Part shown: piece by piece, positions 16,071 to 46,383 of the stretch
How the letters are laid out: every line of letters starts with the position of its first letter
How positions within the stretch are numbered: position 1 is the stretch's first letter
IMG/VR virus record: IMGVR_UViG_2721755643_000007
Strand: one strand, 5' to 3'
Origin: a virus
Lineage: Duplodnaviria; Heunggongvirae; Uroviricota; Caudoviricetes
Length of the DNA stretch: 57,277 nucleotides
Program-made: the position numbers and the translations under genes
The notes under the pieces: generated by a model
Told to the model about the DNA's origin: nothing
The model's database searches: none
What the model saw: only the letters and a program-made list of their open reading frames with translations

Positions 16071-17096
16071 TTACGCCAGTTGTACGGACACGAACGCATC
16101 AGGATCAGCCAGCAGCATCAGCGGTGCTGACTGAATCATGGTGAACTCACGCGCCGGATCGCCGGTGGTCACCCAGTTTTTCGGGTAGCGGGCAGAGGCG
16201 TTAATACCTTCGCGCTGTGCGTCCGCATCCTGAATGCAGCCATAGGTGCGCAGACCGCGTGCCTGAGTGTTCCCCAGCACCATCGTGTTGTCCGGCAGGA
16301 AGTTCTTTTTGACGTCGTTTTCCACGTACTGTCCGGAATACACGACGATCGCCGTATCGCCATACATCCCCTTATAGGACACCGCTTCGCCCAGGTCTTT
16401 TACCGCTGTCTCCAGCTCGGAATGAGAGCCGCGACGGGTATCCAGCTTCTCCTTGACGGCTTTGAAGGAACGGAACAGCGCCCAGCCTTTCGGATCAAAC
16501 ACGATGATATTCACCACGCCGCTGGCGTTCAGCGCATAGGCTTCGATATCGTCGGTCGGGTCATACGTGGACTTGTCACGCTTGCTCCACTCCGTACCAC
16601 CGGACTGTGTGATGTTGTTCGCCGCACTGCGGCCCATATCCACCTCAACCGGATCGAAGGCTTCACCGGTCATGGTGTATTTGCCCTTAAGCACAGCAGA
16701 AACTGCCTGCATCTCTTCGACCTGAGCAATGGCCAGCTCTTCGTCTCGCATGTTCTGCATGATGATGCGACGGCGGCGGTAAGCCGGGTCCGCCAGATTC
16801 TGCGGATCTTCATCCGGCAGGCGACGCAGGGTCATCTGCGGATTCACCTCATGCTTGGGTTTGACATATCCCGGCGTAAATTCAGAGGTGGAGCCGCCAC
16901 GGGAACGGATAACCTCACCGGAAACAATCGGCGAAACGTACAGCGCCATGTTTACCAGTCCCGGAATTTGTGAGAGATAGACTTTCTCCGTGGTGAAGGG
17001 ATAGCTCTCACGGAAAAAGAGACGCAGAAACAGCGGATCAAACTTAAATTTCTGCTCATTTGCCGCCAGCAGCTGGGCGGTTGTGTACATCGACAT
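16071..17096 (-). CDS. E: major capsid protein E
   Basis: 341 aa from MSMYTTAQLLAANEQKFKFDP to SVQLA; near-identical to recalled lambda gpE. Confidence 0.95.
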   Translation of the reverse strand: MSMYTTAQLLAANEQKFKFDPLFLRLFFRESYPFTTEKVYLSQIPGLVNMALYVSPIVSGEVIRSRGGSTSEFTPGYVKPKHEVNPQMTLRRLPDEDPQNLADPAYRRRRIIMQNMRDEELAIAQVEEMQAVSAVLKGKYTMTGEAFDPVEVDMGRSAANNITQSGGTEWSKRDKSTYDPTDDIEAYALNASGVVNIIVFDPKGWALFRSFKAVKEKLDTRRGSHSELETAVKDLGEAVSYKGMYGDTAIVVYSGQYVENDVKKNFLPDNTMVLGNTQARGLRTYGCIQDADAQREGINASARYPKNWVTTGDPAREFTMIQSAPLMLLADPDAFVSVQLA

Positions 17097-17151
17097 AAAA
17101 AAATCCCGTAAAAAAAGCCGCACAGGCGGCCTTTAGTGATGAAGGGTAAGG

Positions 17152-17493: not shown

Positions 17494-18813
17494 TTACACT
17501 GGTGTGTTCAGCAAATCGTTAACGGCATCAGATGCCGGGTTACCTGCAGCCAGTGGTGCCGGTGCCCCCTGCATCAGACGATCCAGCGCAGTGTCACTGC
17601 GCGCCTGTGCACTCTGTGGTGCAGCTGCCAGAATGCGGCGGGCCGTTTCCACGGTCATACCGGGGGTTTCGGCCAGCACACGTGCCTGTTCTTCGCGTCC
17701 GTGAGCTTCCTCACAGTTGAGGATCCCCATAATGCGGCTGTTTTCTGCCGCAACCGCAGCGGTGATCTGCGCGTTCACGTCCGGCTGCGCCGCGCTGGCG
17801 TTTTCGCCCTCCGTCGCTTGCACCACGTCAGTAACGTCAGCCTGCGAAGCAGTGGCTGAAACAGTTGTTGATTGAGTCTCTTTGGTCATTCGCCCTCCTG
17901 AGAGACGGGATTTACGTGCATCCAGTGCATCACGCATAACGGTGATCGCATCGGTGCTGTTGACAAGTTCATCAGCCAGTCCGGCATCAATGGCCTCCTG
18001 ACCGCTGTACACTGCAGCCTCGGTATCCAGCACAGCCTGCACGGACAGGCCGGTATATGCCGACACCTTCTGCGCAAACATCCGGCGGGTTGCATCCATC
18101 CGGGACTGCAGTGTCTCCCGGACATCACCCGGTAGATGGCTGTAGGGGTTGCCATCCACCTTATGGCTGCCGCTGTAAATCAGCGTGATTTCCACGCCCT
18201 GTTTCTCCAGCGCAGCGCCGTAATTACTGTGAGCCATCATGACGCCGATGGAGCCTGTCCGGGCGGTCTGCGTGACCAGACGCCGGGAGGCGGCGCTGGC
18301 AAGCAGCTGACCTGCACTGCAGTTCATGTCGTTGGCCAGCGCCCATACCGGCTTTATGTCACGCACACGGGCGATGATGTCAGCACAGTCAAATGCTCCC
18401 GCCACCATCCCGCCCGGTGTGTCCATATCGAGCAGAATGCCGTCCACCATCGGATCGCTGGCAGCCTGTTGCAGACGAGCGATAATGCCGTTGTAACCGG
18501 TCATTCCCGAATACGGCTGCAGCGCCCGCGTCCGGCTGACCAGCGTACCGGACACCGGCAGCACGGCGATGCCGTTCATGACCTGATAACTGCGGGCCTG
18601 TCGTGGTCCGTCATCATCACCGGATAACGCCAGCGCCGCGGGTGCCTCTCCGGCAGTCAGGCTGTCGCCGGATACTGCATCCGTCAGGCGACTGATCCCA
18701 AGCTGGCCTGCAAGCGCACAAAAGAAAACCCGCGCATAGGCGGGTTCAAGCATCAGCGGCTCATTAAAAGCCATGCTGGCAATATGCGGGAGATTACGCA
18801 GCTCTGCTGTCAC
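17494..18813 (-). CDS. C: capsid protease/scaffold protein C (Nu3 nested in-frame)
   Basis: 439 aa lambda C-like from (V)TAELRNLPHIASMAF; GTG start preceded by AGGAGG; overlaps the end of B by 20 nt. Confidence 0.9.
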   Translation of the reverse strand: MTAELRNLPHIASMAFNEPLMLEPAYARVFFCALAGQLGISRLTDAVSGDSLTAGEAPAALALSGDDDGPRQARSYQVMNGIAVLPVSGTLVSRTRALQPYSGMTGYNGIIARLQQAASDPMVDGILLDMDTPGGMVAGAFDCADIIARVRDIKPVWALANDMNCSAGQLLASAASRRLVTQTARTGSIGVMMAHSNYGAALEKQGVEITLIYSGSHKVDGNPYSHLPGDVRETLQSRMDATRRMFAQKVSAYTGLSVQAVLDTEAAVYSGQEAIDAGLADELVNSTDAITVMRDALDARKSRLSGGRMTKETQSTTVSATASQADVTDVVQATEGENASAAQPDVNAQITAAVAAENSRIMGILNCEEAHGREEQARVLAETPGMTVETARRILAAAPQSAQARSDTALDRLMQGAPAPLAAGNPASDAVNDLLNTPV

Positions 18814-19567
18814 TCTTCTCCTCCTCTGTTGATTGTCGCAGTCCGGATTCAAATGCCGCAGCCGCCCAGGCGGGCGGTTTAAGACCGGCTGCACGGCGCT
18901 CCATCGTTTCACGGACCTGCTGGGCAAAAATTTCCTGATAGTCGTCACCGCGTTTCGCGCACTCTTTCTCGTAGGTGCTCAGTCCGGCTTCTATCAGCAT
19001 CACCGCTTCCTGAACTTCTTTCAGACCATCGATGGCCATACGACCGGAGCCTATCCAGTCGCAGTTCCCCCAGGCACTGCGGGCTTCCTGAAAGCTGAAG
19101 CGCGCTTTTGAAGGTAACGTCACCACGCGGCGAACGATGGCCTCTTCAAGCCAGCACAGAAACATCTGGCTCGCCTGACGGGATGCGACGAATTTTCGCC
19201 GCCCCATAAAGTACGCCCACGACTCGTTCGCACTGGCCCGTGCCGTGGAGTAGCTCATCTGGGCGTAATTCCGGGAAAGCTGCTCATACGAGACACCCAG
19301 CCCGGCAGCGATATACCGCAACAGTGACTGCTCAAACACGGAGTAGCCGTTATCCGTATCCTGAGCCGTCTGCAGGTTCAGTGAGTCCCCCGGCATCAGG
19401 TGCGGCACTTTTGCGCCTCCCAGACGGACCGGTGCTGCGGCGTAATACGCGGCAATTTCACCAATCCAGCCCGTCAGCCTTTCCCGCTGCTCCTGACTGT
19501 TCGCGCCCAGAATAAAATCCATCGCTGACTGCGTATCCAGCTCACTTTCAATGGTGGCGGCATACAT
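18794..19567 (-). pseudogene. B: portal protein B, C-terminal fragment (gene split by the island insertion)
   Basis: 257 aa MYAATIESELDTQSAMDFILGANSQEQ...EEEKSDSRAA matches the C-terminal part of lambda gpB; begins exactly at the insertion junction. Confidence 0.9.
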
Positions 19568-20675: not shown

Positions 20676-21230
20676 TTACTTATCTTTATTCGGCTGCAAC
20701 TTATCCGGTACGTTTCCGGCAGTTTCCATCAGATAATCGGACAGCATCAGCGGTATGTTTTCGTCAAGTTTTGCGCATGCGTTACAGGCTCTGATAACTT
20801 CTTTTTTCAGTCCATCCAGCATAGACGGCTTCATGTCGGGAAACTTCCTTGTCATGGCAAGCGGCAGGCTGTCCATGATTGAAGAAATCTGACTCGCCAA
20901 TTTTGAAAGCACGTATATACAAAACGCTGTATCAATAACGTCGCCGCGTTCGCGCTCGTTTTTAAGCTCCTGCGCCTCTGCCTGTGCTGTCAGCAATCTG
21001 ATCCTGACTCGTAGGAGTTCATCATCATCAATCTCGCCTTTGTCGTCTGTAATCTGGTTAATTGCATTGCTAACCCGATTGTCTATTACGCTGGCAACAT
21101 CATAAAACGCCTCGCGGCCTTTACGTTCAACGGGAGTCACTCCCCACTTGTCGAACGCTGTCGCACTTACACGGCAGCTTTGCGCCATGTTTTTTTTGTT
21201 CATCAGGTGCGATTTCATCAATATCCCCAC
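20676..21230 (-). CDS. terminase small subunit paralog (lambda Nu1-like) encoded by the island
   Basis: C-terminal two thirds align to helper Nu1 (RLLTAQAEAQELKNERERGDVIDTAFCIYVLSKLASQISSIMDSLPL versus [47 protein letters not shown]); adjacent to the island cos; true start may be the internal MNKK. Confidence 0.8.
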   Translation of the reverse strand: MGILMKSHLMNKKNMAQSCRVSATAFDKWGVTPVERKGREAFYDVASVIDNRVSNAINQITDDKGEIDDDELLRVRIRLLTAQAEAQELKNERERGDVIDTAFCIYVLSKLASQISSIMDSLPLAMTRKFPDMKPSMLDGLKKEVIRACNACAKLDENIPLMLSDYLMETAGNVPDKLQPNKDK

Positions 21231-22165: not shown

Positions 22166-23212
22166 TTAGCCAATGCGAACGGTAACAAAACGATTGATGC
22201 GGGCCGGTATTGGCTGTGGTGCTGAATGTGTCTGCACATATTCAATAGCCGGATCACCAGGCACAATATAGTTTTTCGGTGCAAGTTCGGCTTTAGTCAG
22301 CCCCATTCGGATTAGCTCCGGATCCTGAATACCGCCATAGGCGACAATCCCCTGAAGAGCCGTATTGCCAAGCACCATCAAATCAGGATCAAGGAAATGT
22401 TTTTCTGTTCCGTCCTCGTCGGTATAACGCCCGCTGTAAACAACAATCGCAACATCGCCCATATACCCTTTAAAACTCACCGAATCACCAAGGTCTTTAA
22501 GGGCCGTTTCCAGTTCGGAATTAGAACCACGACGGGTATCCAAAGCCTCTTTTATCGCTCTGAATGAACGGTATTTCTTCCATACATTACCACCCATAAT
22601 GATGATATTAGTGACGCCCTCACTAAATTCTGCGTAGCTCTCAATATCATCATTTGGATCAAAAGTTTCTTTATCCTTACCTGACCACTCAGTACCGCCA
22701 GACTGAGTGATGATATTTTGTGGTTTTATATTCCAGTCCAGCTCATAACGTTCAATACCATCGCCCTCAATGATATTTTTCCCCGTTGTGATTGCCTGAA
22801 CAGCAAGCCATTCAATACGTGCACGAATAGCTTTAGCCTGATTTACAATCGCCTGTTTAACTTTAATATTACGCGCCCCAAAAGCATTGTATTGCTCAGG
22901 TGACACACCAGCAGGGCGCACAGCTAACTTATTTGGATCAATGCTGCTTTTCGGCTTCATATAACCTGGACGAATTGTTTTTGATTCGTATCCCTCATCT
23001 CGTGAAACTTTACTGCCCACCATAGGAGAGCAAAACGCCGCGATCGGGATATTTGGATCGTCGATCGTATCAAGAATAATGTCTCTCGATTCAAACATTA
23101 CCGAGCGAGTGAAAAACAAACTGGTAAACAACGCATTTAATTTTTTTTGCACATCTTCAGCATTAGCCACCTGCACAAGCTGTGTAGGCGAATATAAATC
23201 AACCATACTCAT
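22166..23212 (-). CDS. major capsid protein paralog (gpE-like) encoded by the island
   Basis: Start MSMVDLYS; shares ITQSGGTEWS, DTRRGS.SELETA.KDLG and AIVVYSG with helper gpE; rough by-eye identity 35-40%. Confidence 0.85.
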   Translation of the reverse strand: MSMVDLYSPTQLVQVANAEDVQKKLNALFTSLFFTRSVMFESRDIILDTIDDPNIPIAAFCSPMVGSKVSRDEGYESKTIRPGYMKPKSSIDPNKLAVRPAGVSPEQYNAFGARNIKVKQAIVNQAKAIRARIEWLAVQAITTGKNIIEGDGIERYELDWNIKPQNIITQSGGTEWSGKDKETFDPNDDIESYAEFSEGVTNIIIMGGNVWKKYRSFRAIKEALDTRRGSNSELETALKDLGDSVSFKGYMGDVAIVVYSGRYTDEDGTEKHFLDPDLMVLGNTALQGIVAYGGIQDPELIRMGLTKAELAPKNYIVPGDPAIEYVQTHSAPQPIPARINRFVTVRIG

Positions 23213-23423
23213 CCTCTTTACATTCATTACAAATAATTGTGAATATATTCTATTACCGATGTCTGCTATGCGAATACATGCAACCAAGTGCAATGTTGTA
23301 TAAAATATGCCGTAACAACTTCAGTGCTGATAATTCGTGTTAATGTATTTACTTCCTTTGGTCGGGATTTATGTAGCATGCCGGAAAATCTATTTTTTTC
23401 CGGCATCTTTTTGTTTGCAGAAT

Positions 23424-24441: not shown

Positions 24442-26196
24442 TTATAAAAACGCGTCGCAATCGTCTGTTGTAATTGCGTTGGTCTGCGTTACTCCCTTAA
24501 CTTTTCGCGTAATATATTCATGCCCGTAAACTTTCGCCGCTGGCTTCATGGCCTTGCTGAACTCAGCCACGTTTAGCGGTTTGCTCCTGCCCGCGTATGC
24601 CATAAACGCCAGATAGACGCGGTAAAGGCTGTTCCTGGTCGTGTACTTCACTGAATCACCACCGCCACCCATCATCAGGCCGCGCGCTTCCTCCAGAAAA
24701 TTCAGGAACTGGCAAAACTCAATAACCGGATCCGTCTGTTGCTTTATTGCCAGTGCTTCATCACCGTCACGCTGTTCCAGTAGTAAAGCCCGTGCCTTCT
24801 CAGGGTCGGTAAAGTTCGCCAGCAATCGGCGGATAATAACGGGGATTTCAGCCGCAATCTTTTCCGGTAGCTCCCTGTCTTTTTCGGCCTCACTGACGAT
24901 ATTGTCGAAACGGAAAATCACGCGACGACGTGCCACACCTCCGGCCCGTTCGGTGAATATCATCGGGTTGTTGTTGGTCGCCAGCACCACCGCCCTGATT
25001 ACCGCCGTGAAACGCTTTTCATATTTCGGGTTAATTTCCACGGGGTCGCCGCCTGTGATTTTCTTGATGCCCGTTCCTTCGCCTGTATATTTCGGCTGGT
25101 CAGCCAGGACGATAAGACGACTCCCGACAACCTGCGCACGTCCACCAGCATCATCAAGCGATGTCATTTCAGCGCTTACCGTGTTCTGTTTCCCTGCCAG
25201 AAGGCTGGCTATGTGTGTGAATGTACTTTTACCGCTCCCGCCGTCTCCGGTGGCCTCAATAAACATCTGCCAGTCGTACCGATTCGCCATAATCATGTAC
25301 AGCGCGGCACATATACGCATCATCTTGCGCGGGTCTTTTCCGGCTGCGTGCTCAAGCCATTTATGAAAGTTTGGCGCGTTATCGCGGATGTTCTCCCCTG
25401 GTGCTGGTGGCGTGTACTCAATGCCGTTGTGCGTGGTGATCCAGTTCTCCGGCGTGTGCGGGGAAAATTCCCCCGTTTTCAGGTCAAGCGCACCATTGGC
25501 GAACGGCAGCAAATCGCCAGACGGCTCGCCCATTGGTTCGGCAATAACTTTTAACGCTTCCACGGCGTTATTGATTACGCGCTTGCTGAAAGTGGCCCTG
25601 TGCTCTGAATAGATCGCCACCATTTCGCGGCTAAGTTCCATTGTGCTGACCGGACACCATACCCCGCCGCGCCATACGTGAACGATTTCACTTTCAGGAT
25701 GTACGCAAACGCCATCAAAGCGATCGGCAAGCAACTGCGCGCGCTCACTGTCCGCCATCTGCGAAAGTTGCGCCTTTTGCTTTACCGGAAGCTCAATGAC
25801 CAGACCATCAGAAAGATTCTGGCGTTCACGGGCCAGATATTCGCGCCAGTTCTGCACCTCCTGGCCGTGCATACCCTCAGGATAAAAATTTGCATCCTGT
25901 ACGCCTGCTGCCGCCAGCTTCTGACCAATCGCCTTTATCATTACAGGCGCAAGATATCCGGCCCTGTATATGCGTGCTGATTTTCGGCCTTCCGGCACAA
26001 TTTGCAGATTATCCAGTTCGGATAGCTGCTGCTCCCCAAGCCACACAGGAGGCTCATTATCTCCGGCCATACGCGCATCATGTTCCTGCCATTGTTTCGC
26101 GTGTGCCCAGGCATCACTACCCGCAAAAATAATGACTTCTGTTCCTTTGTGTTTTATGCCGCGTGACTGCTGTTTTACGTTCGGTGCCAGTTTCAT
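24442..26196 (-). CDS. primase-helicase (D5 / P4 alpha-like NTPase with Walker A)
   Basis: 584 aa; Walker A GDGGSGKST; size and domain order typical of satellite and plasmid primase-helicases. Confidence 0.8.
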   Translation of the reverse strand: MKLAPNVKQQSRGIKHKGTEVIIFAGSDAWAHAKQWQEHDARMAGDNEPPVWLGEQQLSELDNLQIVPEGRKSARIYRAGYLAPVMIKAIGQKLAAAGVQDANFYPEGMHGQEVQNWREYLARERQNLSDGLVIELPVKQKAQLSQMADSERAQLLADRFDGVCVHPESEIVHVWRGGVWCPVSTMELSREMVAIYSEHRATFSKRVINNAVEALKVIAEPMGEPSGDLLPFANGALDLKTGEFSPHTPENWITTHNGIEYTPPAPGENIRDNAPNFHKWLEHAAGKDPRKMMRICAALYMIMANRYDWQMFIEATGDGGSGKSTFTHIASLLAGKQNTVSAEMTSLDDAGGRAQVVGSRLIVLADQPKYTGEGTGIKKITGGDPVEINPKYEKRFTAVIRAVVLATNNNPMIFTERAGGVARRRVIFRFDNIVSEAEKDRELPEKIAAEIPVIIRRLLANFTDPEKARALLLEQRDGDEALAIKQQTDPVIEFCQFLNFLEEARGLMMGGGGDSVKYTTRNSLYRVYLAFMAYAGRSKPLNVAEFSKAMKPAAKVYGHEYITRKVKGVTQTNAITTDDCDAFL

Positions 26197-28127: not shown

Positions 28128-28706
28128 TCACTGAATGCGGTTACCAAAGTAAAACTCAGGCTGATATTCACGTATCAGCGTTTTTTCTTCTTCCTCCAGC
28201 TCACGCTTTTTGCGCTTACATGCCTGTAGCTCCCTCCCCTTCTCGCTGGCACTTATTTGATATTGCTCTTTACGGCGGGAAAAATCCTGTAATGCACCCC
28301 ACGGGATACCATAAGTCCCCGTTTTTCTGATACCTGGTATCACATTTCTGAATACCCAGTTACTGAAACGATGAGCAAATGTGCCAGGCGTCGTTGCTTT
28401 GCGGCTGCGGGCTATTAGTTTGTAGAAACCTGACTCAGAGATAATTCTCATATTCTGATTTCCTCCTGGGGTGTAAGTTAAATTTACTCCCTTTTCATCA
28501 TCATCAAGCATCTGCAACGCCGTACGCGAATTGGTTAGTTCCAGCGCAGCACAAACATCTTTTGCAACAAACCACGGATCGCCGTTCAGATACACCACAC
28601 GAACGTTCACACTATCAAAGCGCAGAACGACGAGATCACGAATATCGCAGAATTTTTTCACTGGACGAGCGTACCCCTTGCCCGTCACGGCAATATTTTT
28701 ATTCAT
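28128..28706 (-). CDS. Bro-N domain protein (antirepressor-like)
   Basis: 192 aa; N-terminal FDSVNVRVVYLNGDPWFVAKDVCAALEL typical of Bro-N. Confidence 0.75.
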   Translation of the reverse strand: MNKNIAVTGKGYARPVKKFCDIRDLVVLRFDSVNVRVVYLNGDPWFVAKDVCAALELTNSRTALQMLDDDEKGVNLTYTPGGNQNMRIISESGFYKLIARSRKATTPGTFAHRFSNWVFRNVIPGIRKTGTYGIPWGALQDFSRRKEQYQISASEKGRELQACKRKKRELEEEEKTLIREYQPEFYFGNRIQ

Positions 28707-29021: not shown

Positions 29022-30263
29022 TCACACCACCTCTTTATTAAGCTCGATAACGTTGTTGTTAAATCCTGCTATCGTATTAAGGTAATTAACCCACATATTA
29101 AGCACCTCAAGTTTTTTCTTTATATGCCTGCTTTTATTGTAAACACCAGCAACCCCTTTCACTTTATGACCTAAAAGAAGTTCGACAATATAAGGATCCG
29201 CCCCCATATCATTAAGCGTAGTGGAAAATGTGCGCCTGAAATCATGTATGCACCACAAGCCATTAGTATCATGACCAAGACGCCTGCATATTCTGTTTGC
29301 AGCCCCTGTTATTGTCGCCCTTTGCAAAGCACAACCGACAACATAACCGCGATTTTTTGTTTCTGCGTAAAGATTAACGATCCATTGTTTTATTCCGTCA
29401 GGAACAGGCCTTACTATAGCCTCCTTGTTTTTGCTGTGCTCTTTTGGGACTGTCCATACCCAGTTTTTTAAATCCCATTCGTCCCAGGTGGATAGCCTCG
29501 CCTCCTGCTGTCGGCAACCAAACACCAGGCAGATAACCATTATTCTTCGGTTATATATTGATGACAGAGTTAGCAAATTATTACCGTAAGCATAAGACCA
29601 TACATCAGCGGTTTCATTGATATTAAGAACGCGATCCCTTATACCGGATGAGCGCCCGACATAACTTACGTTAATATCTCCAAAGGGATCGCACGCGATG
29701 TATTGCCTGACGCGACAAAAACGCAACGCCTGTTTGATATCAAGAAAAATTGCACCAGACATAACAGGCGCATTTTTTTTGATCCTGTCAAAGACGGTAA
29801 GCCATGTGTGTAATTTGCACTGTTCTATAGCCATATCACCGATATAGGGGAAGATATGCTTTTCAAATCGTTTTATTAAATATTCATGCTCTTTTCTGGC
29901 TGTTGTGGCGTGATTGTCGTACCAGTAAAACAGCGCATCCCTTACGGTCACTGGTTGCATAGTTTTTTCGGCAGCAAGTTTTATTTGCCTGCGGGGGTCC
30001 AGATTTTCAGCCAGCCATTCACGGCACTGATCACGCATGCGCCTGGCCGTTGCAAGAGACATGTCAGGATAGCGACCAAGTGTAAGCCATACCGGAGGGG
30101 ATTCCCTGCCACCAAGACGATAGTAAAAAACAAAGCTGATCCCCCCAACCATGCTTACACGCACAGACAACCCGCGCCCATCCGCTATTGTTTTTTGTTT
30201 GTCCTGCCGTTTTCCGACAAGACTCTTTAACAGTTTGTCACTGAGTTTGTTTTCAATAGCCAT
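29022..30263 (-). CDS. tyrosine integrase (P4-type, with N-terminal arm-binding domain)
   Basis: 413 aa; N-terminal DGRGLSVRV / YRLGG / LGRYPDMSLATAR motifs; C-terminal HDFRRTF ... LLGH ... VYNKS. Confidence 0.9.
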   Translation of the reverse strand: MAIENKLSDKLLKSLVGKRQDKQKTIADGRGLSVRVSMVGGISFVFYYRLGGRESPPVWLTLGRYPDMSLATARRMRDQCREWLAENLDPRRQIKLAAEKTMQPVTVRDALFYWYDNHATTARKEHEYLIKRFEKHIFPYIGDMAIEQCKLHTWLTVFDRIKKNAPVMSGAIFLDIKQALRFCRVRQYIACDPFGDINVSYVGRSSGIRDRVLNINETADVWSYAYGNNLLTLSSIYNRRIMVICLVFGCRQQEARLSTWDEWDLKNWVWTVPKEHSKNKEAIVRPVPDGIKQWIVNLYAETKNRGYVVGCALQRATITGAANRICRRLGHDTNGLWCIHDFRRTFSTTLNDMGADPYIVELLLGHKVKGVAGVYNKSRHIKKKLEVLNMWVNYLNTIAGFNNNVIELNKEVV

Positions 30264-30411: not shown

Positions 30412-33392
<2,981 letters not shown>

Positions 33393-33418
<26 letters not shown>

Positions 33419-33938
33419 TCAGCAACCCCGGTATCAGTTCATCCAGCGCGGCTGCTTTGTTCATGGCTTTGATGATATCCCGTTTCAGGAAATCAACATG
33501 TCGGTTTTCCAGTTCCGGAAAACGCCGCTGCACCGACAGGGGGATCCCGTCGAGAATACTGGCAATTTCACCTGCGATCCGCGACAACACGAAAGTACAG
33601 AATGCGGTTTCCACCACTTCAGCGGAGTCTCTGGCATTCTTCAGTTCCTGTGCGTCGGCCTGCGCACGCGTAAGTCGATGGCGTTCGTACTCAATAGTCC
33701 CTGGCTGGAGATCTGCCTCGCTGGCCTGCCGCAGTTCTTCAACCTCCCGGCGCAGCTTTTCGTTCTCAATTTCAGCATCCCTTTCGGCATACCATTTTAT
33801 GACGGCGGCAGAGTCATAAAGCACCTCATTACCCTTGCCACCGCCTCGCAGAACGGGCATTCCCTGTTCCTGCCAGTTCTGAATGGTACGGATACTCGCA
33901 CCGAAAATGTCAGCCAGCTGCTTTTTGTTGACTTCCAT
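33393..33938 (-). CDS. Nu1: terminase small subunit Nu1
   Basis: 181 aa MEVNKKQLADIFGASIRTIQNWQEQGMPV matches lambda Nu1. Confidence 0.95.
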
Positions 33939-37837: not shown

Positions 37838-38920
37838 ATGAAAAAATTAACAGTGGCAATTTCTGCTGTAGCTGCATCAGTACTGATGGCGATGTCTGCT
37901 CAGGCAGCTGAAATTTATAATAAAGACAGTAACAAGCTGGATCTGTACGGGAAAGTTAATGCTAAGCACTACTTCTCCTCTAATGATGCAGATGATGGTG
38001 ATACTACTTATGCCCGTCTTGGCTTCAAAGGTGAAACCCAAATCAACGATCAACTGACTGGTTTCGGTCAGTGGGAATATGAATTCAAAGGCAACCGCGC
38101 TGAATCTCAAGGTTCCTCCAAAGACAAAACCCGTCTTGCATTTGCAGGCCTGAAATTCGGTGACTACGGCTCAATCGATTACGGCCGTAACTACGGTGTA
38201 GCATACGACATCGGTGCGTGGACTGACGTTCTGCCAGAATTCGGTGGCGATACCTGGACCCAAACAGATGTATTCATGACTGGTCGCACCACAGGTGTTG
38301 CAACTTATCGTAACAACGACTTCTTTGGTCTGGTTGATGGCCTGAACTTTGCAGCTCAGTATCAGGGCAAAAATGACCGAAATGAAGTAACTGAAGCTAA
38401 TGGCGATGGTTTCGGTTTCTCAACTACTTATGAGTATGAAGGATTCGGCGTGGGTGCAACCTATGCTAAATCTGATCGCACTAATAATCAGGTTATCTAC
38501 GGTAACAACGGTCTGAATGCTTCTGGTCAAAATGCTGAAGTATGGGCAGCTGGTCTGAAATATGATGCGAACAACATCTATCTGGCCACCACCTATTCTG
38601 AAACCCAGAACATGACTGTTTTTGGTAATAACCATATTGCCAACAAAGCACAAAACTTCGAAGCTGTTGCACAATATCAGTTCGACTTCGGCCTGCGTCC
38701 ATCCGTTGCTTACCTGCATTCTAAAGGAAAAGACTTGGGTGTTTGGGGTGATCAGGACCTGGTTGAATATGTTGATGTAGGTGCAACCTATTACTTCAAC
38801 AAAAATATGTCCACTTTTGTTGACTACAAAATCAACCTGATTGATAAGAGCGATTTCACGAAAGCATCTGGCGTTGCTACCGATGATATCGTTGCTGTAG
38901 GTATGGTTTACCAGTTCTAA
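37838..38920 (+). CDS. nmpC: outer membrane porin (NmpC/Lc family, lysogenic conversion)
   Basis: 360 aa with signal peptide; OmpC-family sequence ending VAVGMVYQF; sits between Q and the lysis genes in opposite orientation as in DLP12. Confidence 0.85.
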
Positions 38921-40364: not shown

Positions 40365-40527
40365 GATTCCTCCTTGCTGCCAGTCGCAACCATTTTTTAT
40401 CAACCAGGCTGGCGGTATATCCGAGCAGTGTTGGTATTTCGGATGGTTTCAGCTCAGGCTTACGCTTACGACGATTTGGTACTCTGTAGATGTGTCCGTT
40501 CATGACACGAATAAGCGGTGTAGCCAT
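40357..40527 (-). CDS. ninE: NinE
   Basis: 56 aa [56 protein letters not shown] translated by hand from the minus strand; below the ORF-track cutoff. Confidence 0.75.
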   Translation of the reverse strand: MATPLIRVMNGHIYRVPNRRKRKPELKPSEIPTLLGYTASLVDKKWLRLAARRNHG

Positions 40528-40982
40528 TACGCCTCCTGCTTGTCGCGCAGCAGCTGGAACTCGCAGCTCTGCGGAATAGTCAGGTGGCAGCCAATATTCA
40601 TCGCCCAGGCTTCAACCTTACACAGGAAGACATACATCTCTCCGGTATCAAGATTGGAGGTATGACGTAATGACTGAATGGTGGTGATTTCACCGGTTAC
40701 GACATCAACCAGTTCTTTGGTTTCATAACCGAGATAAGTGTGTTTGAGAGCATCTTTTACCCAAGCTGGAGTGGCGAACGTTTTACCCCTGCTGATGAGG
40801 TATTCACTGATTTCGCTGTACCACATGTGGCTGAGTGCATTCTGGGAAAGACTGCGTCTCTCGCGCCACGGTTTAAGCACCATGCGAAAGCATTTGCCGT
40901 CCTCCAGATAAGGCTGGATCTGCCGACCGATAGCGGTGAAGTTACCGCGATGCAATTTGATACCATCTTGTGGGAGGTTCAC
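40527..40982 (-). CDS. YbcN-like protein (nin region)
   Basis: 151 aa [30 protein letters not shown] matches recalled DLP12 YbcN. Confidence 0.8.
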
Positions 40983-41174
40983 GCTTCACCTCCGCAGAGA
41001 TCAAACGCTGGATGCAAAATATCGCAGGTGCATTTCTGCATCTGTGAATGGAGAAGAGAGGTTGGATTGTATGTGCGCATAAACGTCCCCGTTTAGCGCA
41101 GAAGTCACCGGAGGAGTTCAAACTCCGGTGACTTAATTATGGCAAGTTGATTGTTGAAAATCAATTTAGTGGAT

Positions 41175-41957
41175 TTAGGCGCAATACAAAGGATCATTAG
41201 CAGCTCTAATACCGCCCTGAATCGCAAGCCCTGTATGGCAATTTGACATTGAGCATGATTGCCATCTGTGCAAGGGACCTCCATTAATCGAAACTTCCAG
41301 CAGATCTTTATCTCCTTTCATCCTGACCCCTTCATACAACATATCAAGACGCTCAACAATCAATCCTGTTGGAGGTTCCATTTTTAGAACGAGGGCAAAC
41401 TCTCCTGGCCCACGTCGTATTGTTATACGCGGGCCGGTACACTCCACATCCCAATTGTCTGATTTAGCTTTCCATTCATTTTCATCTATCAGTAAAGTCT
41501 CCTTACCAATAGAATTACAGAAAATTCCTGATAAAAGCATCGGTCCATGTGGTATGGGTGAAGGTTTCACAGAAAGAATGGGTTGTTCGTTGACTACAAT
41601 CAAATTTTGACAGTTATGAAACGTCACTCCTGCAAATTTTACTGTTATAGGCTCATTATGAAAATCAAACATTTCATTTGCAAAACCAGCCTGTAAGCAC
41701 TTGGGATTTCTGTCAGCTATTTCCACTGTCTGTGCTGAAAGTCTACCACGAGCTCTTTTTTGATTGCATTGGGAGCAAAGAAGTGTCATTCCATTCGGAT
41801 CATGTATTTTGGCATCAACGAAGTCAGGTTTAAAATGCTCATAATCATAAAATCCAAATCCACAAATTACACAGCCAAAGCCGCACCTTTGCCTTATCTG
41901 ACGTTTTATTGTCTCAGGTATTCTTCTTGAGAGCCCGTGTTTATTAATATTGTCCAT
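41175..41957 (-). CDS. HNH endonuclease domain protein with an unknown C-terminal domain
   Basis: 260 aa; N-terminal Cys pairs CGFGCVIC ... CSQCNQ with YDYEHFKP and HDPNG between; AT-rich flanks. Confidence 0.6.
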   Translation of the reverse strand: MDNINKHGLSRRIPETIKRQIRQRCGFGCVICGFGFYDYEHFKPDFVDAKIHDPNGMTLLCSQCNQKRARGRLSAQTVEIADRNPKCLQAGFANEMFDFHNEPITVKFAGVTFHNCQNLIVVNEQPILSVKPSPIPHGPMLLSGIFCNSIGKETLLIDENEWKAKSDNWDVECTGPRITIRRGPGEFALVLKMEPPTGLIVERLDMLYEGVRMKGDKDLLEVSINGGPLHRWQSCSMSNCHTGLAIQGGIRAANDPLYCA

Positions 41958-42131
41958 ATGGTTAGTACGCTATAAGTTTGTTTCTATAATTTTACCACAA
42001 TAGATAAGTTTGTATCAGAAATCGCTATATGGAGTGAGCGGAATATTTATATTATTCATGCAATTGCTCTCCCGTACGCAGCCCGCACTTCCGTCATCGC
42101 AGAATGACGGAAGCCTTACTAACTAGCGCCT

Positions 42132-42455
42132 TTATTGAAACAGATTCTGAGGTAAATGCGGCAATACTTGACTCCACTTATCATCCTGCCACGGCTGAAG
42201 TTTTACATGTGCCGTTTCTCGGGCGAGGATTGCTCGCGCTCTGTTGAGTCTCTGGGGATATTCTTGCTCGATGGAAGTGAAGTGACCAGCCTCACCATGC
42301 TCCGCATCCTGAAGAAGATGAGTAACGTTCTGGTAGGCAATTAACATCACATTCCCTGCTCGCCATAACCAGGCGAGTGTGCAAAGTTCGTTATCAGTGA
42401 ATTGTTTTGTGATTGGGAATTGTTGAACTGCTAGAACGGGAACGCCAGCATCCAT
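42132..42455 (-). CDS. hypothetical protein (107 aa)
   Basis: ORF between the HNH gene and the serine recombinase; 10-bp stem-loop CTTCCGTCAT..ATGACGGAAG just downstream. Confidence 0.4.
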   Translation of the reverse strand: MDAGVPVLAVQQFPITKQFTDNELCTLAWLWRAGNVMLIAYQNVTHLLQDAEHGEAGHFTSIEQEYPQRLNRARAILARETAHVKLQPWQDDKWSQVLPHLPQNLFQ

Positions 42456-42566: not shown

Positions 42567-44093
42567 TCAAAAATAAACCTCACCATCAACCATATATTTG
42601 AGAGTACTTATCGCCTGCTGGGCGGATATTGTTTTCATTAAAGGATAGTGTTTAAAAACAATGCCATTCATAAAATAGATATCACAGGTTTTATTATCTG
42701 TATTGATTATGATTTTTTCGAATGTTTTATAGGCAAGTGTACGACATAGCTCTCGCCCATTTTTACTGGTTAAGTCAATAGCATGAAAATCACCAAGTGA
42801 ACTCACCGCTTTACTCTTCAAAGTTTTTAATGATACCGAAGCCCTTCGTAATTCCTTATCTAATACTCTGATTTTTTCTGCTATAGCGGTAACTTCAGGC
42901 GCAACAGATAATGCAGCAATTAAATTATTAATTTTCATCTGGAGCTCAATAATTTTCAACTCTAAAGTTTCATTAGCATCTTTCTTGTTTTCAACTGGTT
43001 GGATTTTACTACAATTAAAAAGCAACTCATTAATGATATTATAATCAACCAAATCTCTCTTTATTGATGGCCTGTCACATCGATGCAGTCTTCTCATCGG
43101 ACAAACATAATAGCCATGCAAACTTCCAGATACCGCATGAACAATCATGGTATTACCACAAGCCTCGCACTTCATAACTGTTCGAAGTAGATTTATCAAC
43201 ATAGGATTTTTGCTACTATTGCTAATACCAAAAGGTGCCAACCGAATTTCCTGCACAGCGTAAAACAAATCATCTGATATGACTCTGGGATAATAGCCAG
43301 CGATTTCACTTATTCCTTTACCTCTTGCACGATATGAAGGTACGCATATACCTATCAGAGCTTTATTCGCTAATAATTTTTCAATTACAGAAGGCCCCCA
43401 TGCACTTTCTTTGCCTGAGAAATTTTTTACAGCATGATCATTTAAATACTTGGCTATTGCATTCAATGATCGCCTTTCCATCCTGAGTTTAAAAATTAGC
43501 TCAATCGTTTTCACCCTGTCGGGGTCTGGAATAAAAGCTGTTCTTTTGTCATCCAATGAGAGCCATCTCGGACAAGACGCCGTCATAATCGTGCCTGACT
43601 CCAGTGCATCCTGCCGTTTTTTCTTCCATGATAATTTAACCCGACTTGACTTTATCTCGCTTTCTTCATTTGCCCTTTGTGCTATAAGTATGGCTTTTAT
43701 TAATGAATATGGATCATTCAAAGAGTCAATGTTATAGACTGTATTATCGCAAAGAGTTATAACATCAATACCGTGATTCAAAATCAATTTCAGACGCTCA
43801 ATCGCTTCACCGACTTTTTCTCTTGAAAGTCTGTCCAAACTTTCAACTAACAATGTAGTTCCTGGCAATATATAACCATGCTCTATAGCATCTAAAAATT
43901 CCGAAAAAGCTCCTGATTGTGCATGCTTTCCTTTGAATGCACTTAATCCTAAATCTTCATATGTTATGGTATCAAGATAATAATTACTATTTACCTTTAA
44001 CCATTCAGCAATAAGTCTTCTCTGTCGGTTCAATGAGTCGCCAGACATCTGACCTGGTGATGAAAATCGCATATATGCTATGGCTTTTTTCAT
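42567..44093 (-). CDS. large serine recombinase (YbcK-like)
   Basis: 508 aa; N-terminal resolvase motif AIAYMRFSSPGQ, recombinase domain and Cys-rich zinc ribbon. Confidence 0.85.
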   Translation of the reverse strand: MKKAIAYMRFSSPGQMSGDSLNRQRRLIAEWLKVNSNYYLDTITYEDLGLSAFKGKHAQSGAFSEFLDAIEHGYILPGTTLLVESLDRLSREKVGEAIERLKLILNHGIDVITLCDNTVYNIDSLNDPYSLIKAILIAQRANEESEIKSSRVKLSWKKKRQDALESGTIMTASCPRWLSLDDKRTAFIPDPDRVKTIELIFKLRMERRSLNAIAKYLNDHAVKNFSGKESAWGPSVIEKLLANKALIGICVPSYRARGKGISEIAGYYPRVISDDLFYAVQEIRLAPFGISNSSKNPMLINLLRTVMKCEACGNTMIVHAVSGSLHGYYVCPMRRLHRCDRPSIKRDLVDYNIINELLFNCSKIQPVENKKDANETLELKIIELQMKINNLIAALSVAPEVTAIAEKIRVLDKELRRASVSLKTLKSKAVSSLGDFHAIDLTSKNGRELCRTLAYKTFEKIIINTDNKTCDIYFMNGIVFKHYPLMKTISAQQAISTLKYMVDGEVYF

Positions 44094-44681: not shown

Positions 44682-44818
44682 AGCATATTCTTTCCTGTTC
44701 AAACTGGAGAGAATTGTACTACAGTTTGAAATCAACTCACCTGTTTCATCATTGTGTACCCATTGATGTTCTTTTATATACCCTCAATACGCGTTTCATC
44801 GCGGCACTGGATTTGCCC

Positions 44819-45724
44819 CTATATTTCCAGACATCTGTTATCACTTAACCCATTACAAGCCCGCTGCCGCAGATATTCCCGTGGCGAGCGATAACCCAGC
44901 GCACTATGCGGATGCCATTCGTTATAATGCTCGAACGCCTCTGCAAGGTTCTTTGCTGCCGTTAACCCGTCTGGTTTGGGCATGATACTGATGTAGTCAC
45001 GCTTTATCGTTTTCACGAAGCTCTCTGCTATTCCGTTACTCTCCGGACTCCGCACCGCCGTGTTCTTCGGTTCAAGTCCCAACATCCGGGCGAACTGGCG
45101 TGTTTCATTAGCCCGGTAGCATGAACCATTATCCGTCAGCCACTCCACTGGAGACGACGGAAGATCGTTGCCGAAGCGGCGTTCCACCGCTCCCAGCATG
45201 ACGTCCTGTACTGTTTCACTGTTGAAGCCGCCGGTAGTCACCGCCCAGTGCAGTGCCTCACGATCACAGCAGTCCAGCGCGAACGTGACACGCAGTCTCT
45301 CTCCGTTATCACAGCAGAACTCGAACCCGTCAGAGCACCATCGCTGATTGCTTTCTTTCACGGCCACTCTGCCTGTATGTGCCCGTTTCGATGGCGGTAC
45401 AGCAGGTTTTCGCTCAAGCAACAGCGCATTCTGGCGCATGATCCGGTAAACACGTTTGGCATTGATCGCAGGCATACCATCAAGTTCTGCCTGTCTGCGA
45501 AGCAGCGCCCATACCCGACGATAACCATACGTGGGCAGCTCTCCGATAACATGGTGTATACGGAGAAGCACATCCGTATCATCAGTGTGACGACTGCGGC
45601 GGCCATCCATCCAGTCATCGGTTCGTCTGAGAATGACGTGCAACTGCGCACGCGACACCCGGAGACAACGGCTGACTAAGCTTACTCCCCATCCCCGGGC
45701 AATAAGGGCGCGTGCGCTATCCAC
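44819..45724 (-). CDS. insD: IS2 transposase OrfB (InsD)
   Basis: 301 aa with DDE integrase-like core; IS2 InsD-like sequence. Confidence 0.9.
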
Positions 45725-46047
45725 TTTTTTGCCCGTCCATATTCAACGGCTTCTTTGAGGAGTTCATTTTCCATCGTTTTCTTGCCGAGCAGGCGCTGGA
45801 GTTCTTTAATCTGCTTCATGGCGGCAGCAAGTTCAGAGGCAGGAACAACCTGTTCTCCGGCGGCCACAGCAGTAAGACTTCCTTCCTGGTATTGCTTACG
45901 CCAGAGAAATAACTGGCTGGCTGCTACACCATGTTGCCGGGCAACGAGGGAGACCGTCATCCCCGGTTCAAAGCTCTGCTGAACAATTGCGATCTTTTCC
46001 TGTGTGGTACGCCGTCTGCGTTTCTCCGGCCCTAAGACATCAATCAT
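45682..46047 (-). CDS. insC: IS2 OrfA (InsC)
   Basis: Start [41 protein letters not shown]; HTH protein overlapping insD. Confidence 0.9.
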
Positions 46048-46383
46048 CTGTACTCCAATGACTAGTCTAAAAACTAGTATTAAGACTATCACTTATTTAA
46101 GTGATACTGGTTGTCTGGAGATTCAGGGGGCCAGTCTAGGCACTCTGGCGACACTCCTTAAAAATCAGATTCGTGCTCACCTTTCCTTCCCGTTCTTCTC
46201 TGGTAGCGAACCGGTAATACACCGTTCGCCAGACCTTACCATCAACGACCAGGATTCCTGCCCGCGTCATTTTAGCCGCAGCCTGATTTATGCTGGTTAC
46301 GGTTGCGCCTGTTACCGCGGCAACGTCCTGTGCACAGAAGCTCTTATGCGTCCCCAGGTAATGAATAATTGCCTCTTTGCCCG

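Follow-up and report, generated by a model that had tools for sequence, protein, structure and literature searches.

What has taken the place of ybcL and ybcM in a DLP12-type prophage, and what might it do there? The locus lies in a stretch of 57,277 nucleotides from a Caudoviricetes record of IMG/VR (IMGVR_UViG_2721755643_000007), here called the window. It represents a lambdoid E. coli prophage of the DLP12 type, largely complete, whose genes are mostly on the minus strand. An earlier note had described two open reading frames (ORFs) at this position, of 260 and 107 amino acids (aa), and had suggested, speculatively, that they are anti-phage or abortive-infection cargo. Both ORFs are where the note had placed them, on the minus strand at 41175-41957 (260 aa) and 42132-42455 (107 aa). 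We propose that the 260-aa gene encodes a stand-alone anti-phage nuclease, carried as autonomous prophage cargo, in which an acidic domain regulates an HNH domain. We regard the gene as a candidate and the proposal as evenly poised between right and wrong.

The 260-aa product is annotated in RefSeq as a hypothetical protein (WP_001301145.1). An AlphaFold model was built on 34 homologues (predicted local distance difference test, pLDDT, 89; predicted template modeling score, pTM, 0.79). In this model the first ~90 residues (codons 1 to 90, 41688-41957, minus strand) form an HNH domain with the beta-beta-alpha-metal fold and a zinc ribbon. The structural relatives of this domain, with their listed figures, are the CBASS effector Cap5 (9.2), IscB (7.7), EcoKMcrA (7.1), the Type I-E HNH Cascade subunit (6.5) and the GVE2 HNH (6.5). 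The pairs C29-x2-C32 and C61-x2-C64, together with E40-H41, H52 and N65, show no or almost no variation among the 34 homologues. The active site looks intact, with catalytic and zinc residues present, their roles being assigned from motif spacing. The window protein scores 14.4 bits with the Pfam HNH model (PF01844), under the gathering cut-off of 21.4, whereas a distant relative (P0201) clears that cut-off at 25.0 bits, and the protein therefore belongs to a divergent HNH subfamily. No match was found in NCBIfam, and neither the single sequence nor the family profile retrieved a sequence relative from the PDB. Among the PHROGs the protein corresponds to phrog_6544 (E 3e-141), described as 'unknown function', and a literature search returned no paper on WP_001301145.

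Residues 91 to 260 (41178-41687, minus strand) are predicted to form a meander of ~17 beta strands, an all-beta domain to which no fold family was assigned. This domain has no relative in Pfam, the PDB or BFVD. It contains no internal repeats, as hhalign of its segments gave merely their deliberate overlap. With a profile of the domain, 1,485 clusters (50% identity) were retrieved from 1.84 billion representative proteins. Among the best 150 hits listed, nearly every full-length protein has the domain starting near residue 90, with the same HNH ahead of it. A few relatives bear extra C-terminal TPR repeats or a CxxCxxCC domain, and no fusion to another effector (TIR, SIR2, PLD and the like) was present among the best 150 of the 1,485 clusters. 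The domain is acidic (family mean net charge -8, isoelectric point, pI, 4.9) and the HNH domain is basic (+5, pI 8.9), so that a role of the C-terminal domain in DNA recognition is disfavored; its charge would fit a regulatory, protein-binding or self-masking role. The tail of the protein carries the motif A-N-D-P-x-Y (41175-41224), which the enterobacterial and Burkholderia forms (260-265 aa) keep and the shorter Pseudomonas and Vibrio forms (247-249 aa) lack. By these comparisons the protein ends in a new, acidic domain with a strict coupling to this HNH. The earlier note was right about the HNH nuclease domain and about the uncharacterized domain that follows it.

We performed a first homologue search, which returned 307 relatives of the 260-aa protein, typically 247-265 aa long. 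When one genome per species was scanned, the protein turned up in 163 species, with both domains kept. These cover Proteobacteria, Cyanobacteria, Bacteroidota, Planctomycetota, Verrucomicrobiota, Chloroflexota and Actinobacteria, as well as the candidate phyla radiation (CPR) and Archaea (Methanothrix, Methanophagales). Against relatives that are 61-79% identical, the nonsynonymous divergence (dN) is 0.14-0.34 in both domains while the synonymous divergence (dS) is saturated, and the ratio dN/dS, where computable, is 0.05-0.17, again in both domains. The 260-aa product is a real protein under purifying selection, and its gene in the window is intact. In E. coli its gene is present in low copy number, with a median of one and a maximum of two matches per genome. 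Among mobile elements, it is carried by 7 of 72,556 plasmids and by a single one of 50,697 sequenced phage genomes, a Klebsiella prophage-derived record. A relative was found in 72 IMG/VR contigs, of which the 55 non-identical ones were analyzed.

The gene lies in an exchangeable module. The window is 97% identical to K-12 in blastn up to 41164 and again from 42558, and these breakpoints set the segment 41165-42557 in place of the 1.85-kb ybcL/ybcM segment of K-12, where the order is ybcK-ybcL-ybcM-ylcH-ybcN; the gene thus occupies the ybcL/ybcM position, as had been claimed. A closer boundary is given by phage Turner, a lambdoid isolate whose backbone is likewise O-P-ren-emrE-ybcK. Turner shares the sequence of the window up to 41164 and again from 42152 (blastn); it has the 107-aa ORF, and three other small ORFs stand where the window has the HNH gene. 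Since the Turner sequence resumes at 42152, the HNH unit is the interval 41165-42151 on the minus strand, an exchangeable mosaic cassette of 987 bp. Its GC content is 0.40 against 0.50 for the window, and that of the 107-aa ORF is 0.475, so the AT-rich pocket reported earlier holds for the cassette and not for the smaller ORF. Identical copies of a 1.8-kb stretch with the 260-aa gene were found in 79 of 5,426 complete E. coli genomes, in every case between ybcK and ybcN.

Other prophages carry other contents. In E. coli ZH193, only the final 50 bp of the HNH gene remain, adjoining ylcH and beside a frameshifted copy of the 107-aa ORF. These terminal 50 bp (41175-41224) are the sole surviving part of the gene in 26 E. 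coli genomes other than that of the window. ZH193 also has, in place of ren-emrE-ybcK, a gene for a 643-aa SIR2 protein between the replication gene P and the Ant remnant (L015 4540-6471), which matches the Aga_SIR2 models of PADLOC (E 5e-63) and the single-gene candidate PDC-S65 (E 4e-33). Because K-12, Turner, ZH193 and the window differ in what they carry there, we view the region from the replication genes to ylcH/ybcN as a cargo-exchange region, with a ylcH-proximal slot whose cargo varies by prophage.

Local signals around the cassette were also inspected. A sigma-70 promoter-like site (CTGATA, 18-nt spacer, TG, TAAAAT; 41989-42018, minus strand) was found by a consensus scan ~30 nt upstream of the ATG. 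It has 9 of 12 consensus matches and an extended -10, a weak call in a region not enriched over shuffles. No Shine-Dalgarno sequence is evident upstream of the 260-aa gene. Hairpins with 12-bp stems are predicted by RNA folding on both sides, on the minus strand: one at 42087-42114, between the 107-aa ORF and the HNH promoter region (-20.7 kcal/mol, z = -2.7), and one at 41102-41134, downstream of the HNH gene (-20.4 kcal/mol, z = -4.7). Neither is followed by a clear T-run. The latter lies inside the block common to K-12 and Turner and is thus part of the conserved backbone upstream of ylcH. The moron-like character suggested before is plausible, given the exchangeability, sharp breakpoints, low GC content and flanking hairpins of the cassette, with a promoter that amounts to 9 of 12 matches.

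The earlier note had grouped the 107-aa ORF (42132-42455) with the HNH gene, and here we disagree with it. The only Pfam domain of this ORF is P22_AR_C (E 1.5e-13), and it aligns to the C-terminal ends of Ant-type PHROGs of 213-319 aa. In this it resembles the P22 Ant and Bro-N antirepressors, from which it differs in lacking the whole N-terminal Bro-N, ANT or KilA-N part. An in-frame stop precedes its ATG by 12 nt, and the gap to ybcK is just 111 bp. Its relatives are confined to E. coli and have many truncated lengths (61-121 aa), and in the comparison with Turner its dN/dS is 0.42, that of the adjacent ybcK being 0.07. On account of this confinement, truncation and relaxed selection, the ORF is best read as the decaying, pseudogene-like C-terminal remnant of a P22-Ant/Bro-type antirepressor gene, unrelated to the HNH gene. 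A two-gene system made of both ORFs was considered and rejected on the same grounds, and also because the two belong to different mosaic modules, Turner having the 107-aa ORF without the HNH gene.

We then looked at where homologues of the 260-aa gene reside. In Buttiauxella, a P2-like prophage has a homologue with gpA (Phage_GPA, E 1e-123) on one side and the portal and terminase genes on the other, and in Pseudomonas luteola one follows a P2-type portal gene and a RelE/XRE pair. The gpA-gpQ interval of P2, the old/tin locus, is an experimentally shown anti-phage hotspot (Rousset et al. 2022, PMC9122126). A Hafnia homologue adjoins a P4-alpha-like primase and an Ash protein, which marks that locus as a P4-like satellite, and in Paraburkholderia a homologue adjoins a 1,987-aa mad3-like (MADS-like) protein. 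A 53% identical homologue in Vibrio cholerae (P0120; L098 1-2161) is a superintegron cassette flanked by V. cholerae repeats (VCR/attC), between a GNAT acetyltransferase and a glyoxalase cassette, with a VCR/attC repeat beginning at the stop codon of the homologue. Of 88 cassettes of the V. cholerae integron, 16 are anti-phage, two of them single-gene His-Me/HNH systems, Sirona and Nemetona (Darracq et al., bioRxiv 10.1101/2024.07.02.601686). Homologues also occupy chromosomal loci in Cyanobacteria, Planctomycetes, Actinobacteria and Archaea.

No partner gene is conserved: across 80 loci from diverse phyla, even the largest cluster of neighbors recurs in no more than 4. The protein must therefore spare its host without outside help, either by its specificity or by regulating itself. 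At four distant loci, in a delta-proteobacterial genome, Nitrospira, a proteobacterial metagenome-assembled genome and Smithellaceae, a related ORF of 118-131 aa lies directly downstream of the homologue on the same strand (L054 6725-7117; L055 822-1175; L079 1752-2114; L085 6753-7124). This ORF may encode a partner particular to a clade, for instance an immunity or regulator protein; the window has no such ORF.

These observations bear on the anti-phage reading of the gene in the following way. It gains indirect support from the places where homologues are located, namely the P2 gpA-gpQ hotspot, a V. cholerae integron cassette, a P4-like satellite and a site beside a MADS-like gene, and from the SIR2 gene in the same region of the ZH193 sister prophage. 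A new, coupled domain, purifying selection, autonomy from partners and the behavior of an exchangeable cargo also speak for it. We infer nuclease activity, expression in the lysogen, a regulatory role of the C-terminal domain and an anti-phage phenotype. In the mechanism that we envisage, the basic, zinc-stabilized HNH domain would be the DNA-cutting effector, and the acidic beta-domain would serve as its regulator, either a sensor or an auto-inhibitor, rather than as a DNA-recognition module. The lysogen would make the protein from the weak promoter of the gene itself and would keep it inactive. A cue from an infecting phage or another mobile element would free the nuclease, which would then destroy the DNA of the invader and possibly also that of the host, in the manner of abortive infection. 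The population that hosts the prophage would thereby be protected.

A more specific version, which we consider speculative and rather doubtful, is that the acidic beta-domain is a built-in inhibitor and sensor at once, possibly a DNA mimic lying on the basic DNA-binding face of its own HNH. A DNA-binding, anti-restriction or recombination protein of a phage would bind the acidic domain and displace it. On this view the family would be a decoy-guard immune nuclease reduced to a single protein, present in bacteria and archaea and trafficked among lambdoid, P2-like and P4-like elements and integrons.

Several points weigh against an anti-phage function. The argument for it is computational throughout, and the regulatory role of the C-terminal domain is deduced solely from its charge and from the absence of known DNA-binding folds. 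PADLOC, which the earlier note had named as a check, assigned the 260-aa protein to no defense system and returned only PtuB (E = 0.04), and it has no model for the family; the proposal of anti-phage cargo is partly supported, through the location of homologues in defense hotspots and cassettes and the SIR2 gene of the sister prophage. The promoter call is weak and a Shine-Dalgarno sequence not evident. Outside Proteobacteria the neighbors are mostly housekeeping genes, and defense genes are not clearly enriched: no defense-island enrichment was evident outside phages among 144 flanking proteins, which are heterogeneous by Pfam and PADLOC. To our knowledge, ybcL and ybcM, the other occupants of the same slot, are not defense genes. 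Finally, the window and ~20 enterobacterial viral contigs have the gene in the direction of the early-right operon, with the replication genes on one side and NinB/DUF1367-Q on the other, an arrangement that fits a lytic-cycle function equally well.

The gene might accordingly encode an accessory nuclease of the lytic cycle, a nin-region enzyme like RusA, YbcO or NinG/Rap, read from pR on induction, that processes replication or recombination intermediates or degrades host DNA for the benefit of the phage itself. In lambdoid prophages of Enterobacter, Klebsiella and E. coli the gene opens the nin region, just behind the replication genes and in the orientation of the early-right operon. Its recurrent neighbors in the 55 IMG/VR contigs are Rep O, DnaC-like, Ead/Ea22-like, DUF1367 and Q, the nin block already contains nucleases, and the protein gives a faint PHROG match to NinG/Rap (E = 0.52). 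The two-domain protein also occurs, however, where no lytic program exists, in an integron cassette and at chromosomal loci of four phyla or groups. The P2 old/tin locus holds homologues as well, and one homologue, on a Pseudomonas prophage, is antisense to the surrounding early genes. The gene is moreover dispensable, being replaced in Turner and K-12, and its presence in just one of the 50,697 phage genomes is not what a lytic function would lead one to expect. We judge a lytic role to be unlikely. An alternative that we hold to be improbable is a methylation-aware, restriction-type nuclease whose C-terminal domain reads the modification state of DNA, and which would either be blocked by a methyltransferase from cis or from the host, as in restriction-modification systems, or would need modified DNA, as in Type IV systems. 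In about 11-13 of the 55 IMG/VR contigs, a large C-5 cytosine DNA methylase (PF00145, 650-790 aa) is found 1-4 genes from the homologue, on either side and on either strand (among them L132, L155, L156, L158-L160, L163, L167 and L168). The same holds for a Pseudomonas prophage (L007 4866-6977), and in Klebsiella prophages an MT-A70 methylase lies two genes upstream of the homologue. This proximity may reflect functional pairing or a shared cargo space. No methylase is present, however, in the annotated 20 kb around an identical copy of the gene, and the tail domain is not basic and corresponds to no known reader. EcoKMcrA, the Type IV restriction HNH of the cryptic prophage e14, has the reverse domain order, the HNH being N-terminal in the window protein. 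The second domain of the latter is acidic and unlike the 5-methylcytosine reader of McrA or an SRA or PUA fold. Matches to Type IV HNH enzymes (McrA, TagI, ScoMcrA, VcaM4I) span only ~72-80 residues, the HNH part. No modified-base reader (McrA-N, SRA, PUA/EVE, SBD) is joined to the window HNH, and the C-terminal domain alone matches none of those enzymes.

A selfish, free-standing homing endonuclease, which would spread by cutting alleles that lack the cassette and bring no benefit to the host, seems very improbable to us. A lone HNH gene with a patchy distribution, inserted between conserved phage genes, would suit such an element, as would the 50-60% identity between gamma- and beta-proteobacterial members, which implies horizontal transfer. 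Yet the insertion contexts vary (after lambda P, after gpA, after a portal gene, as an integron cassette, among housekeeping genes), and no empty-site allele was seen, the sister genomes bearing either other cargo or a deletion with the 50-bp stub. The protein has no DNA-binding extension and its acidic tail has no known DNA-binding fold; the family is nearly absent from sequenced phages, especially virulent ones, and single-copy in E. coli. Homology to a homing endonuclease, which the earlier note had given as grounds for abandoning its idea, was not found. An HNH protein associated with the terminase, of the HK97 gp74 type, was also considered and rejected: the 260-aa protein has a second domain and its gene is in the nin region, ~8 kb from the Nu1 and gpA genes of the prophage (33393-33938 and 31493-33418).

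An anti-phage nuclease of this kind can be compared with several known systems. The CBASS effector Cap5, an HNH-SAVED protein (PDB 7RWK, 7RWM, 8FM1), is similar in its logic of an HNH effector with a sensor, yet the window protein is no member of that family: the C-terminal domain of the window protein is an acidic all-beta meander and not SAVED, and its gene has no CD-NTase or other partner, its neighbors being ybcK, the Ant remnant, ylcH and ybcN. Septu PtuB is likewise an HNH nuclease of a defense system and the sole PADLOC match, but this match is not significant and no gene for the ATPase PtuA adjoins. Homologues are found in exactly the old/tin locus of P2-like prophages, and like old the window gene is a single nuclease-type gene on a temperate phage; the protein families are unrelated, however, Old being an ATPase-Toprim protein, and the window gene sits in a lambdoid nin-region slot. 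Sirona and Nemetona are small, single-gene integron cassettes of the HNH superfamily, and the V. cholerae homologue of the window protein is also a VCR-flanked cassette. Both are missed by DefenseFinder and spread across many Pseudomonadota genera (bioRxiv 10.1101/2024.07.02.601686). No abundant homologue from the pandemic V. cholerae lineage was present among the 120 closest relatives of the Vibrio protein, which suggests that these two systems, compared here by description, and the window protein may belong to different families. HNH effectors and single-gene nuclease defenses are thus kinds already known. What appears to be new is the obligate fusion to an uncharacterized acidic beta-domain, the breadth of the family and the signs that cargo of a defense type is swapped at the ylcH-proximal slot of DLP12-type prophages. 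In the literature searched, we found no description of the lambdoid nin-region slot as a defense hotspot.

Around the locus the genes, in descending coordinates, are replication O/P, ren, an insertion sequence (IS) element, emrE, ylcJ, ybcK, the 107-aa and 260-aa ORFs, ylcH, ybcN, ninE, ybcO, rusA, ylcG, quuD and a porin gene of the nmpC/ompC type. The cassette and the 107-aa ORF are flanked by backbone genes on the minus strand. On one side is ybcK (42567-44093), a large serine recombinase of low GC content annotated with the Pfam domains Resolvase, Recombinase and Zn_ribbon_recom. On the other, in the interval 40527-41080, are a ylcH-like ORF of 33 codons (40979-41080) and ybcN (40527-40982), named from the annotation of the identical region in strain A19 and from the K-12 order, with which the conserved nin block starts. 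The porin gene downstream of quuD (37838-38920) is intact and encodes 360 aa; the nmpC of K-12 DLP12 is broken by IS5. The element between emrE and ren is of the IS3 family (44809-46138, 1,330 bp) and has ORFs of 136 and 301 aa, the longer of which may, we assume, resemble InsD of IS2. Its site differs from that of IS3C in K-12 DLP12, and the ren region of the window runs unbroken across the IS3C insertion point of K-12.

The lambda-family portal gene of the prophage is split. One ORF (30412-31293) covers positions 2-242 of the Phage_portal_2 profile and another (18794-19567) covers positions 238-354, the two halves being separated by an insert of ~11 kb (about 19.6-30.4 kb). The insert contains genes for a tyrosine integrase of its own (29022-30263), a Bro-N protein (28128-28706), a D5_N/DUF5906 primase-like protein (24442-26196), a second major-capsid-E homologue (22166-23293; that of the prophage itself is at 16071-17123) and a Nu1-like fragment (20676-21230). 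The insert resembles a capsid-forming satellite of the phage-inducible chromosomal island (PICI) type that has integrated in the portal gene of a helper-type prophage.

If the 260-aa protein is indeed an immune nuclease, it would represent a very compact, single-gene family (260 aa in a ~1-kb cassette) with a sensor domain that has no known relative. Its members are encoded by no fewer than 163 species-level genomes, which range over Proteobacteria, Cyanobacteria, Actinobacteria, CPR bacteria and Archaea, and PADLOC has no model for them. The DLP12-type slot between the replication genes and ylcH/ybcN would then swap defense cargo, HNH in the window and SIR2 in ZH193, as the old/tin locus of P2 does, and could serve as a positional handle for finding more systems in E. 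coli genomes with this backbone. Even if the phenotype should fail, a new conserved domain would have been defined and the 107-aa ORF reread as a pseudogene-like remnant.

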